DNA of 46,767 bases from Promethearchaeota archaeon (lineage in GTDB: Archaea; Asgardarchaeota; Lokiarchaeia; Sigyniarchaeales; SOKP01). The position numbers were made by a program, and so were the translations under genes. The notes below the pieces were generated by a model, which saw nothing but the letters and a program-made list of their open reading frames with translations, was not told where the DNA came from and did no database searches. The DNA is taken from assembly GCA_048938445.1 (NCBI GenBank), contig JBHLME010000018.1, positions 1 through 46,767 of the forward strand, written 5' to 3'. This document shows positions 29,770-32,784 of the stretch, one piece after another. Each line of letters begins with the position of its first letter. Position 1 is the stretch's first letter.

Positions 29770-30038
29770 TTCAATAATTTCATTGGGTTATAAGTTATTT
29801 TATACATTATTTAATCTTCATTTTCATTCCAATGGATTATAATAAATACCAAGAATTAATATTAAATTATAGTAAATGTAAAAAATCATGATTAATACGT
29901 AAACCTATCGAACTCTGTATTTTTTCATACCCCATCAATTGTTCGAGACTGATCGAAGTGGAGTTAATTTTTAAATACATAAATATAGACAATGGAGGAT
30001 TTTGATAATCTTTAATATCAAATAAATAGGTGAATTCA

Positions 30039-30572
30039 ATGAAGCACGTCTTCAAAATACTTATATTAGGGGATGGTGGTGTTGGAAAAACAACCTTATT
30101 ACATAGATTTGTAGAGGGAGAATTCATTGATACGGCAACGATGACAATTGGAGTTCAAGTTCGTGCTAAAGAGCTTAAAATATCATCTGATACGTGTCAA
30201 ATACTATTGTGGGATGTTACTGGTCAAGAGAGATTTCGTTTCATGATAGAGGAATATTTCAAGGGAGCCCTTGGAGCATTGATTCTTTTTGATATCACAA
30301 ACATGAAGAGTTTCGTAAATATTGAAAAATGGATGACATTATTAGGTAAATTTTATGATGATTTACCTGTGATACTCGTTGCAGCTAAATATGATCTGGA
30401 AGAATTTTCCATGGTTGGAGATCTTTACGCAAGAAAAATACAAGAAAAATTAGGTTTTGATGATTATATAAAGACATCTGCAAAATCCGGAATGAATGTA
30501 GAAAAACCATTTAAGAAAATAGCTAAGCTAATCTTAAATTCAGAAGCAAATCTTTTTAAAAGTGCTACATGA
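30039..30572 (+). CDS. Rab-like small GTPase
   Basis: G1 GDGGVGKT, G2 TIG, G3 WDVTGQERF, G4 AKYD, G5 TSAK. An AGGTGA SD-like sequence precedes ATG 30039. Confidence 0.93.
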   Translation: MKHVFKILILGDGGVGKTTLLHRFVEGEFIDTATMTIGVQVRAKELKISSDTCQILLWDVTGQERFRFMIEEYFKGALGALILFDITNMKSFVNIEKWMTLLGKFYDDLPVILVAAKYDLEEFSMVGDLYARKIQEKLGFDDYIKTSAKSGMNVEKPFKKIAKLILNSEANLFKSAT

Positions 30573-30708: not shown

Positions 30709-30963
30709 TTAAATTCCCCCTGCTTGCGTTGCCATTACGGTGATTACATCTTTTTTTGGGTGGATCCCTATCTTTGCAAATTTTAAATTATCTGGTAAAA
30801 CCTTACCTTTAAAGATAAATTGAATAGCTAAAATTGGGTTAAGCTTATATTGTTTTTGAACCTCTTTTTTGATTTCAGCAATCGAAAAGTTTGGATCAAC
30901 TTCGATGAGCTTAATGGCTTGGTCAGGAGGAACTCCTGTAAGCCTAAATCGATATTGAGTCAT
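30709..30963 (-). CDS. Ubiquitin-like protein ending in GG-I
   Basis: Ub-like pattern IEVDP..SIAEIKKEV, FIFKGKVLPD and C-terminal AGGI. Confidence 0.85.
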   Translation of the reverse strand: MTQYRFRLTGVPPDQAIKLIEVDPNFSIAEIKKEVQKQYKLNPILAIQFIFKGKVLPDNLKFAKIGIHPKKDVITVMATQAGGI

Positions 30964-31098
30964 ATTATATTTTCACTTCTTATATATTTAATTAAATTAT
31001 ATATATTCTCATAATAAAAAATCGATATATTAAGGATTGGCGTATATCAGACTATACTTAGGTTTATCTAGTTTTAATTGAGAATAATCCTTAATTTT

Positions 31099-31275
31099 TT
31101 AAAATCTAAAAGGTTCTGGTCTTGGACCAGGTGTTGGTGGCATTGGAGGGGGCCCTGGTGCTGGAGGTCCTCTATTTAGGAGTCGTTCGATTGAAGAAAG
31201 TCGTCGTTCTATTTCTGTTAATCTATTTTCAATTGATACTAACTTTTCCATTATGTTTGGGTTAATTATTGACAT
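31099..31275 (-). CDS. 58-aa coiled-coil/polyproline microprotein (absent from ORF track)
   Basis: Manual translation: MSIINPNIMEKLVSIENRLTEIERRLSSIERLLNRGPPAPGPPPMPPTPGPRPEPFRF*. GC-rich coding-like patch inside an AT-rich gap. Confidence 0.75.
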   Translation of the reverse strand: MSIINPNIMEKLVSIENRLTEIERRLSSIERLLNRGPPAPGPPPMPPTPGPRPEPFRF

Positions 31276-31539
31276 TCTATTATAATATATTTTTTATTTT
31301 TAATTTAAGTTCAATTAGAGATGAATGGTAAAATTCCTTAAATCATCTTCGAAGTTATTAGTACACATGCAATATTTAAATTTTGCTCTGGTTTGGGAAA
31401 AATTTCAATGTTATTAGAATTACTGAATGCTAATTTGTAATTTTAAACTATATGTAGAATCATAGTTTTTAATAAAAAAAAAAGTCTAAGTATAGTCAAA
31501 AAGTATAAACTTATATTGAGAATTATCTATTATTATCAT

Positions 31540-32784
31540 ATGGCAACATGGAACATATCAGAGAAACTGAAAAAAAAAATAATAAATGATGTGAAGAATA
31601 TAGAGAGCAATGATGCTCGCTTTTTATATTTACTTAGAAATTTAGGACCACAACAGTTTGAAAATCTGGTAAAATATTCAGGATTATCAAGATCCACGGT
31701 CTCAAAATATTTAAAACTTCATGAAAAACAAAATAATATTACAAAAAAGCTTTTTGAGGGGAAACAAAAATATTGTATTACTGAGCAAGGAGTTGAGAAA
31801 CTAAACGAAGCTCCGCGCGCAGAAGGTATTTTTTTTAATGAAATAACAAATCATTTATCCAAATTATCTGAGATGTATAAATATTATAAAAGTATCGCTG
31901 TTGATGATTCTATTATATTTCAAATAATCCGACTCGTTTCAAATATAGGAGATAATTTTTATATTATTGAACAAAATGAAGATCTATTTTTAACGCTTTT
32001 TTATATTTTTCTAAATTCAGTTCTAACACCGGAATATAAATTTGAGATGGATTCATTCTGTAAGCATTATAAGATTAAAAGATTGCGTATAAATTTTTAT
32101 GTTGACAAGATGATGTCAAGTAAGTTAGGTTTTTTCTTATTTAGACGAAGGAGTGAAGAAGGGGATGATCTTTTCTTTTTTCATGAAGAGGACATTTTGG
32201 GGACGACAACCTTACGATTAGTTAAAGATAAATTGATGGAAGAAATCATTCACTTCAATATGAGTGGGCAACAAATAAGCCATGATTTTGATAAGATTTT
32301 ATACGATTTGGATAAAATGGCAGAAGATATCTCTGAAAAGCTGATAAAAATGGATTTAATTTGGGAACGAATTAAAATTCCATTTGAAATGCTCATTGAA
32401 AAAATAATGGTTAAAATGGCTATTGATATGGGAATTTCAAAAATAACATTAATGGACATAGTGCTCCAATCTGAAAAATTATCTAGTTCAATAGAAGGAG
32501 TCAAATCATTGTTTAATATCATTGAAGGCTCTGAAAAGTATGAGGATTTAAACCTCGTGTCAATTTCTGAATCTCAAGAAATTATTATAGAGGATATTTT
32601 AGAACGAGTACAAGGATTTTGTCCTAATTGTGGTAAAAGTATATTAAAACAAGACTTTTCAAAAGTTTGCCCTAAATGCGAAACATCATATGAACCAGAA
32701 TCTCTATTAAAAAGCATAGATGATGCCGCGGGAGTAAGTGTGAAATATAAGCATCTGATTTACTCAAGTTTTCAAGAAGAATAA
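31540..32784 (+). CDS. wHTH regulator with C-terminal zinc ribbon
   Basis: SGLSRSTVSKYLK...YCITEQG wHTH and CPNC...CPKC. ATG 31540 preferred over TTG 31516. Confidence 0.78.
   Translation: MATWNISEKLKKKIINDVKNIESNDARFLYLLRNLGPQQFENLVKYSGLSRSTVSKYLKLHEKQNNITKKLFEGKQKYCITEQGVEKLNEAPRAEGIFFNEITNHLSKLSEMYKYYKSIAVDDSIIFQIIRLVSNIGDNFYIIEQNEDLFLTLFYIFLNSVLTPEYKFEMDSFCKHYKIKRLRINFYVDKMMSSKLGFFLFRRRSEEGDDLFFFHEEDILGTTTLRLVKDKLMEEIIHFNMSGQQISHDFDKILYDLDKMAEDISEKLIKMDLIWERIKIPFEMLIEKIMVKMAIDMGISKITLMDIVLQSEKLSSSIEGVKSLFNIIEGSEKYEDLNLVSISESQEIIIEDILERVQGFCPNCGKSILKQDFSKVCPKCETSYEPESLLKSIDDAAGVSVKYKHLIYSSFQEE

Follow-up and report, generated by a model that had tools for sequence, protein, structure and literature searches.

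Bacterial SSB combines an oligomeric core with a disordered Pro/Gly-rich linker of variable length and a conserved C-terminal tip ending in a Pro-Phe-type hydrophobic terminus, and the free carboxylate of this tip docks on many partners. Work on Asgard archaea has looked for precursors of the ubiquitin, ESCRT and actin regulation of eukaryotes, and almost all of it has been directed at folded domains. Here we describe a small protein of a different kind, encoded in a 46,767-nucleotide stretch of Promethearchaeota DNA (hereafter the window). The microprotein is built like a eukaryotic linear-motif scaffold, with a heptad-repeat helix, a proline-rich spacer and a short C-terminal tail, and it is conserved beside the Ubl gene of its lineage.

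The microprotein gene and its family

The 58-aa ORF named in a preliminary description of the locus was recovered at its reported position (Table 1), and its translation consists of the heptad pattern followed by GPPAPGPPPMPPTPGPRPEPFRF. Residues 5–34 comprise N-P-N and four clean heptads, and residues 35–58 are RGPPAPGPPPMPPTPGPRPEPFRF. The GC content of the proline part contrasts with that of the flanks, which lies at about 0.10–0.35. The length of the ORF alone is no better than chance, other unconserved ORFs of 60, 60, 86 and 90 aa being present in the same 4.5 kb; it is the conservation of this one that is significant. Between the closest pair of orthologs, differences at codon positions 1, 2 and 3 number 5, 1 and 21 over 177 nt (21 of the 27 at the third position), corresponding to a dN of 0.031, a dS of 0.90 and a dN/dS of 0.035, and the median dN/dS for the 106 of 171 ortholog pairs with usable dS is 0.29. 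At the invariant tail residues the orthologs draw on all four Pro codons, four Arg codons and two Lys codons, and synonymous codons differ at every tail position, so that it is the protein, rather than a DNA or RNA motif, on which selection acts. Judged by these substitution patterns, the ORF is a genuine protein-coding gene that evolves under purifying selection, and we infer its transcription and translation from that selection.

Full-length copies were found by single-protein search in about 20 of 61 related genomes, all belonging to one archaeal family (f1). A single-sequence homolog search had returned nothing; a profile built from 19 extracted orthologs (alignment A1) subsequently recovered the family. 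Used against 400 genomes of the phylum, the A1 profile gave matches at E 1e-6 or better in 84, namely the genome of the window, 82 of the 134 other f1 genomes (83 of 135 when its own genome is included) and 1 of the 265 genomes outside f1. This sole outside match is partial and lies inside a 192-aa ORF; partial profile matches outside f1 were rejected as orthologs, as they are longer proteins that merely share a coiled coil and proline composition. Near full-length copies account for 80 of the 85 places listed and occur in 79 genomes, all of them f1. The homolog search and dN/dS analysis that the preliminary description had proposed place copies in 79 of the 400 phylum genomes, with the low closest-pair ratio given above, and the disruption of the ORF that it had named as grounds for rejection is not seen among these copies, none of the 80 containing an internal stop.

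Family members are 48–68 aa long. Searches of public protein sets with the profile returned 39 representatives at E 1e-10 or better, and the tail motif is present in 33 of the best 150 public profile matches. At 90% identity the relatives form 62 clusters; every named one is a "hypothetical protein" from Promethearchaeota or Lokiarchaeota-type MAGs and carries no Pfam domain. The exact sequence of the window copy is present in the ESM Atlas, within an unnamed cluster of 79 members. The earlier label "unannotated" is therefore apt for the gene track on which it was based but not for public resources, which hold both the Atlas copy and the 62 clusters. The microprotein matched no Pfam family at E 0.01, and relaxing the threshold to E 10 brought up nothing beyond generic coiled-coil similarity. 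No description of the family was found in the main texts covered by a full-text literature search.

Table 1. Features of the microprotein locus with their positions in the window, and residue composition of the helix at heptad positions a, d, e and g.
Feature	Position	Strand	Basis or detail
Microprotein CDS	31099..31275	minus	ATG, 58 codons and TAA stop; ORF list and sequence
N-cap (N-P-N) and four-heptad amphipathic helix, residues 5–34	31174..31263	minus	Alignment A1, heptad statistics, AF2
Heptad a composition, n=50			I37/L11, L45, L26/I23, L29/I12
Heptad d composition, n=50			L29/I15, I46, I31/L17, I31/L18
Heptad e composition, n=50			E50, E50, E49
Heptad g composition, n=50			R40+K10, R41+K9, R47
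Proline-rich spacer, residues 35–52 (RGPPAPGPPPMPPTPGPR)	31120..31173	minus	GC-rich stretch, GC 0.62
C-terminal tail PEPFRF, residues 53–58	31102..31119	minus	Family motif PEPF[RK][FI], then stop
Intergenic spacer between microprotein and Ubl genes, 135 nt	30964..31098	minus	AT-rich, with T-run and own promoter-like motif
12-nt motif CTAAGTATAGTC	31050..31061	minus	87–98 nt upstream of Ubl start; perfect inverted repeat I7
Ubl gene, 84 aa, ends QAGG-I	30709..30963	minus	Pfam ubiquitin PF00240, E 1.4e-9
Identical copy of 12-nt motif	31486-31497	plus	43–54 nt upstream of wHTH gene
Divergent wHTH/zinc-ribbon gene, 414 aa	31540..32784	plus	N-terminal wHTH and C-terminal CxxC...CxxC ribbon

Helix, proline spacer and C-terminal tail

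In the window copy the a positions of the helix are occupied by L12, L19, L26 and L33, the d positions by I8, I15, I22 and I29, the e positions by E16, E23 and E30, and the g positions by K11, R18 and R25. Within the helix of the A1 alignment N7, E16 and E23 are invariant, and P6, I15, R25 and E30 are conserved at 90% or more. The same arrangement is observed in the 50 distinct family members that were anchored on their heptads (Table 1), where Ile or Leu is found in 43–50 of the 50 at each of the eight a and d positions. AF2, run on the 19-row A1, predicts a single helix spanning residues 6–34 (block pLDDT 94–95; mean pLDDT 84.8) and no secondary structure after residue 34. We took at least four unbroken heptads, hydrophobic a and d positions and a predicted helix to define a coiled coil, and the microprotein shows all three; its family also shows complementary charges at g and the next e.

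Glu at e and Arg or Lys at g pair only between parallel helices and are self-complementary, so a parallel homo-oligomer is favoured. The heptad pattern noted in the preliminary description is borne out in this form, as one suited to parallel homo-oligomerisation, by both the 50-member statistics at e, g, a and d and the predicted helix. A profile search of the PDB returned only parallel coiled coils, all of them weak (E 7e-5 to 0.07) and aligned over positions 11–36, among them GCN4 core variants and a channel tetramerisation helix. In GCN4 core variants, Leu at a together with Ile at d favours a tetramer; by this rule, the all-Leu a and all-Ile d positions of the window copy suggest that the microprotein may be tetrameric.

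The spacer of the 50 family members spans between 9 and 30 residues, with a median length of 23 and a Pro content of about 48%, and its columns are gapped and without conserved sequence both in A1 and in the 50 members. The window copy and many orthologs bear PGPP/PPPPP-type runs, and in many members a second, degenerate P-F-[RK]-P word is found within the spacer. In the 48-aa forms (a same-genus ortholog and two database forms) the helix and tail are retained with almost no spacer, and no proline run is longer than 3. Neither a run of roughly five or more Pro nor a fixed word of the PxxP, PPxY, FPPPP or P(T/S)AP type is maintained across orthologs, and the only word that is kept is the terminal PEPF. 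The preliminary description had treated the proline-rich motif as the ligand; the free variation of the spacer in length and sequence speaks against this, and the invariant element is instead the C-terminal PEPF[RK][FI].

The tail residues P53, E54 and P55 show no variation among the 19 sequences of A1, F56 is conserved at 90% or more, and in 46 of the 50 family members PEPF[RK][FI] forms the very C-terminus. Because the spacer sequence is unconserved and the short forms lack any Pro run longer than 3, the conserved functional end of the microprotein is probably the tail rather than the polyproline. A six-frame scan of its own genome, covering ORFs of at least 40 aa, found the tail ending in no ORF other than this one and that of a single zinc-ribbon protein. 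The latter, which ends EPFKI, was rejected as a sharer of the tail, since its orthologs have FEPFEI, FEPFGI, FEPFE or FEPYEKI at the end, within a Cys-cluster domain, and the resemblance is a coincidence. Two described C-terminal signals were also considered. In the PEP-CTERM/archaeosortase signal, PEP or PGF is followed by a transmembrane helix and a basic cluster in a protein with a signal peptide; the microprotein has three residues after PEP and no hydrophobic segment at either end, and a signal of this type was rejected. The HbYX proteasome-docking C-terminus has hydrophobic-Tyr-any as its last three residues; here these are F-[RK]-[FI], with a penultimate residue that is aromatic in none of the 19 sequences, and this type was likewise rejected.

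Neighbouring genes, synteny and losses

The Ubl gene was said in the preliminary description to be co-oriented and 135 nt away, and the intervening gap is exactly that long (Table 1). Its product matches PF00240 at 38 bits, with a cut-off of 25.4. Of 61 related genomes from across the class, 54 carry a Ubl copy, and the best one in each is mostly 69–100% identical; three weaker cases in this survey are fragmentary. Ubl orthologs terminate in GG followed by 0 or 1 residue. By sequence, the closest relatives in the PDB are the UBL domains of Mdy2/Get5 (E 3.5e-6), and no other chain reached E 0.001. The spacer between the microprotein and Ubl genes shares 102 matching bases with that of the closest relative in a global alignment of 135 with 133 nt, and a scan of it for hairpin terminators found none.

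On the other side of the microprotein gene lies the divergent wHTH/zinc-ribbon gene, whose start was taken at the ATG at 31540 (the ORF list has a TTG at 31516). Its Pfam matches are weak and below the cut-offs (HTH_5, 0.0016; DZR, 0.0023; MarR, 0.0064), the AF2 model (mean pLDDT 53) is confident only over about residues 10–90, which form the wHTH, and an Atlas look-up gave leads below 0.9, all of them wHTH regulators. The same 12-nt motif stands upstream of both this gene and Ubl, and words resembling AAGTATA are found again upstream of the wHTH gene at other loci; by inspection of the sequence, no copy was seen upstream of the microprotein. With the motif placed in this way, Ubl probably has its own promoter, and the adjacency of the microprotein and Ubl genes need not mean co-expression.

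Synteny was counted over 19 full-length microprotein loci. Ubl lies immediately downstream and co-oriented in 15 of them and is adjacent but convergent in 1. In 2 of the 19 an inserted gene for NAD-dependent DNA ligase separates the microprotein from Ubl, and in 1 further locus, the third of genus g3, the ligase is present and Ubl is not on that contig. The gap from the microprotein to the downstream gene ranges over 45–240 nt. The wHTH/zinc-ribbon gene is positioned divergently upstream in 17 of the 19 loci, one exception being cut by the contig end; outside f1 it is not adjacent to Ubl. The link to the Ubl gene holds as conserved synteny. A tie to actin or ESCRT, proposed in the preliminary description, finds no such backing, as no gene in the window points to either. 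The wider window is metabolic, with two GH94 phosphorylases, a peptide ABC transporter, NadA and radical-SAM genes, and these surrounding genes give no hint of a pathway. One Ras-type GTPase gene is also present in the window.

Genera g4 and g8, along with one complete g2 genome, lack the microprotein at the syntenic site. At these loci the wHTH and Ubl genes directly adjoin each other in divergent orientation, with gaps of about 220 or about 470 nt, and six-frame translation of the gaps revealed no remnant ORF. In a midpoint-rooted tree of the wHTH protein, the loci without the microprotein fall in three separate places among those that bear it, a distribution most simply explained by two or three losses. 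Comparison of the Ubl sequences showed no residue that consistently sets loci bearing the microprotein apart from those lacking it. Given these absences, the microprotein is dispensable. Its family is an undescribed one confined to a single archaeal family.

Proposed mechanism, alternatives and known systems

The pattern of constraint, in which the helix core and e/g pairs are held, the spacer is free and the terminal tail is invariant, together with the survival of helix and tail in the 48-aa forms, argues for a tethered-tail scaffold, that is, a parallel coiled-coil oligomer displaying several C-terminal tails. On these sequence grounds we judge the chances of this reading to be about evenly balanced. 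The elements that we infer, namely oligomerisation and its order, a docking role for the tail, and any partner, would combine as follows. The ORF would encode a small trans-acting scaffold, the N-capped four-heptad helix of which would assemble into a parallel homo-oligomer through inter-helix salt bridges between e and g. Each chain would then continue into a stiff, extended proline-rich spacer, free to vary in length and sequence. The PEPF[RK][FI]-COOH tail would be the ligand, with the tail and its free carboxylate predicted to dock in a conserved pocket of the partner, and the oligomer would thereby bind with high avidity or bridge several copies of that partner. The multivalent adaptor of the preliminary description survives in part: a display architecture is plausible, with the tail rather than the polyproline as its ligand, but nothing was found to connect it to actin or ESCRT.

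By synteny, the Ubl pathway and the wHTH/zinc-ribbon protein are, taken jointly, the first though tentative candidates for the partner. Caution on a tight link to Ubl is advised by the repeated loss of the microprotein with Ubl unchanged and by the separate promoter-like motif. Complex prediction for the wHTH/zinc-ribbon protein, Ubl and the microprotein gave a score of 0.00 in two runs in which the controls were not folded, and this speaks neither for nor against binding. A more specific and doubtful version is that the microprotein may be a lineage-specific Ubl accessory, a tetrameric stalk with four PEPF[RK][FI]-COOH tails that would dock on Ubl or on a machine that handles it. An E2/UEV-fold protein, a Cdc48/proteasome-type ring or the wHTH/zinc-ribbon protein could serve as that machine, each with the same doubt attached, and such a stalk, should so speculative an arrangement exist, would cluster or bridge its partners by avidity. 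If true, an accessory of this kind would represent multivalent short-linear-motif scaffolding, usually deemed a eukaryotic trait, in a prokaryote, and it would have originated inside a single archaeal family and been lost there more than once. A tail that binds a component of the Ubl pathway would provide a simple, testable handle on the organisation of the Ubl system in cells that cannot yet be manipulated genetically; a tail that binds something else would still define a new C-terminal docking motif.

The functional end could alternatively be the helix, with the microprotein acting as HSBP1 does on HSF, pairing with helices of the wHTH/zinc-ribbon protein and tuning transcription of the locus while the tail is auxiliary. 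The persistent divergent position of the wHTH/zinc-ribbon gene, the long helices predicted after the DNA-binding domain of its product, and weak Pfam similarity to HSBP1 (14 of 19 members, best E 1.7e-4), XhlA (15 of 19) and DUF7310 (15 of 19) are consistent with this. The window copy, however, scores 12–15 bits against gathering cut-offs of 22–35, with none of the three at E 0.01, so that membership in these families was rejected, and the weak best E fits generic heptad similarity. The arrangement of the wHTH gene also persists unchanged where the microprotein has been lost, the self-complementary Glu at e and Arg at g favour homo-oligomers, and the high conservation of the C-terminal tail is left unexplained, which together make this modulator unlikely.

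That the proline-rich stretch is itself the ligand, in an oligomeric adaptor that recruits profilin-actin or an EVH1, SH3, WW, GYF or UEV-type domain in the manner of formin FH1 or Ena/VASP regions, we consider improbable. The PGPP/PPPPP-type runs of the window copy and many orthologs would suit it, and its own genome encodes one profilin, at 25 bits, exactly the cut-off, and three E2/UEV-fold (UQ_con) proteins above cut-off. A conserved PXXP motif in Asgard UEV-Vps23, described in a study that examined UEV-domain autoinhibition (10.1101/2023.07.25.550441), also lends it support. The runs are nevertheless unconserved, exceed 3 residues in none of the 48-aa members and fall in gapped columns, next to a tail that is invariant. 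Pfam WH1/EVH1, WW, GYF, SH3_1 and UEV had 0 matches in its own genome, a count that must be read beside control genomes that likewise had none over cut-off, their single SH3_1 match, in Bacillus subtilis, lying below it. Loki profilin-1 and -2 reportedly did not bind the VASP polyproline peptide (PMC8410842), and the neighbourhood contains no actin or ESCRT genes. With the polyproline as a spacer, a focus on profilin or SH3-type domains alone would probably miss the point of the microprotein.

Polyproline stalls ribosomes, and the ORF might on this basis be a cis-acting leader or arrest peptide, in which the prolines and the terminal PEPF-R-F-stop would stall the ribosome in an aIF5A-dependent manner and set expression downstream. 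Many orthologs do have runs of 3–5 Pro codons just ahead of the stop, and the ORF leads a co-oriented pair of genes separated by a short spacer. We regard this explanation as decidedly improbable, because the N-terminal helix, needless for arrest, is strongly conserved at e, g, a and d, as conserved as the tail; proline runs are missing from the short forms; the downstream gene differs between loci, being Ubl in 15 of 19 and the DNA ligase in the 3 of g3, with Ubl convergent in 1; and Ubl retains a promoter-like motif of its own. Conservation here is not confined to an arrest segment, and no fixed coupling to one downstream gene is seen. That there is no gene at all, and that the ORF arose by chance across a GC-rich, G-run DNA element, as ORFs of 60–90 aa commonly do in this AT-rich window and as the missing Pfam family might suggest, is scarcely credible for a frame that is intact in 79 genomes, has a dS far above its dN with third-position bias, varies synonymously at invariant residues and is predicted by the gene callers of several public sources.

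The tethered-tail reading can be set beside several known systems. HSBP1 (PF06825), XhlA (PF10779) and DUF7310 (PF23991) are, like the microprotein, small and largely a single heptad-repeat helix; the matches cover this helix only, and the models show no proline spacer or PEPF tail. The GCN4 variants and designed parallel coiled coils share with it four heptads, an Ile/Leu core and e/g pairs of the Glu/Arg type, a similarity of heptads that is convergent and not by descent. The Ena/VASP and formin FH1 adaptors resemble it in joining coiled-coil oligomerisation to proline-rich sequence for multivalent display. The order and size of their parts are different, however; the Pro runs of the microprotein are unconserved, it has no EVH1, WH2 or FH2 domain, and the conserved C-terminal tail is lacking from those adaptors. 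The microprotein resembles the Ena/VASP-type layout less closely than it does hubs of the SSB type. There is no homology with SSB: the microprotein lacks an OB fold and shows no sign of DNA binding, its core is a 30-residue coiled coil, and its tail is basic and aromatic where the SSB tip is acidic. As a model for how the microprotein might work, the bacterial SSB C-terminal tail hub is nonetheless the closest analogue, with its oligomeric core, its linker and its docking tip.

The Ubl gene and its divergent partner

Sequence identity of the ubiquitin-like protein (Ubl) encoded next to the 58-aa microprotein is 69–100% in most genomes of the class. The C-terminus of Ubl consists of GG followed by 0–1 residue. 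The closest solved relatives by sequence are the UBL domains of Mdy2/Get5 (E 3.5e-6), which are also the sole PDB chains to match Ubl at an E value of 0.001 or better. No gene for an E1, E2 or E3 enzyme is present in the window.

Throughout f1, the family of genomes that carries the microprotein, the Ubl gene and the wHTH/zinc-ribbon gene are conserved as a divergent pair, including at those loci that lack the microprotein itself, and the pair was not found in families other than f1. Some of the wHTH/zinc-ribbon orthologs have a second zinc ribbon at the C-terminus. The tree of this protein does not match the genus labels, and paralogy or transfer at the locus is therefore possible. A perfect 12-nt word, read in the sense of each gene, lies upstream of both members of the pair, in other loci the wHTH gene is again preceded by AAGTATA-like words, and no copy of the 12-nt word was seen on inspection of the sequence upstream of the microprotein. 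The word is a possible promoter element or operator common to the Ubl and wHTH genes.

Features of the window and of the related loci discussed in the text
Feature	Location	Strand	Remarks
Ras/Rab-type small GTPase, 180 aa	window 30030-30572	+	Pfam Ras, 8e-43
Ubl	window 30709-30963	-	
12-nt word CTAAGTATAGTC	window 31050-31061		upstream of Ubl
12-nt word CTAAGTATAGTC	window 31486-31497		upstream of wHTH/zinc-ribbon gene
wHTH/zinc-ribbon gene	window 31540-32784	+	further loci L031-L034, L041, L042
Coiled-coil/linker/zinc-ribbon protein, 130 aa	own-genome contig C17, L003:1456-1872	+	
Polyproline family, own-genome copy	C28:44727-45191 (L057:4725-5192)	-	
Polyproline family, relatives	L023:1383-1790; L024:1325-1756; L025:1270-1707; L026:179-643		

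DNA ligase and small GTPase genes

Within genus g3 (loci L008, L009 and L012), a gene for an NAD-dependent DNA ligase of the LigA type follows the microprotein after 45–88 nt, and in two g3 genomes it is positioned between the microprotein and Ubl. The Ras/Rab-type GTPase gene of the window is convergent to the Ubl gene; as a neighbour of Ubl it is not conserved in the other examined loci, except for one distant match (34% identity) at L038.

Microprotein relatives and polyproline proteins

Small, diverged relatives of the microprotein at L028 (G157:C7) and L029 (G013:C33) retain the N-terminal helix, but the proline spacer or PEPF tail is missing. In the 130-aa protein of contig C17, a Pro/Ala/Thr-rich linker lies between a short coiled coil and a zinc ribbon at the C-terminus; the layout of short coiled coil, proline linker and small C-terminal module is repeated in the microprotein's own genome.

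A distinct family of about 140–155 aa has a helical N-terminal part and a coiled coil, and then a polyproline region that is long and canonical, with repeats of GPPGGPP and PPPPP. At the C-terminus a conserved amphipathic helix precedes a basic cluster, an end that appears to resemble WH2. A Pfam search of the family returned neither WH2 nor any other family, and the surrounding genes (Elf1, Pelota-like and radical SAM) give no pointer to actin. The WH2 motifs of this phylum are known inside gelsolins only, according to a 2025 preprint. The link to profilin and actin, which the preliminary description had proposed for the microprotein as a proline-rich adaptor, fits this polyproline family better than it does the microprotein.
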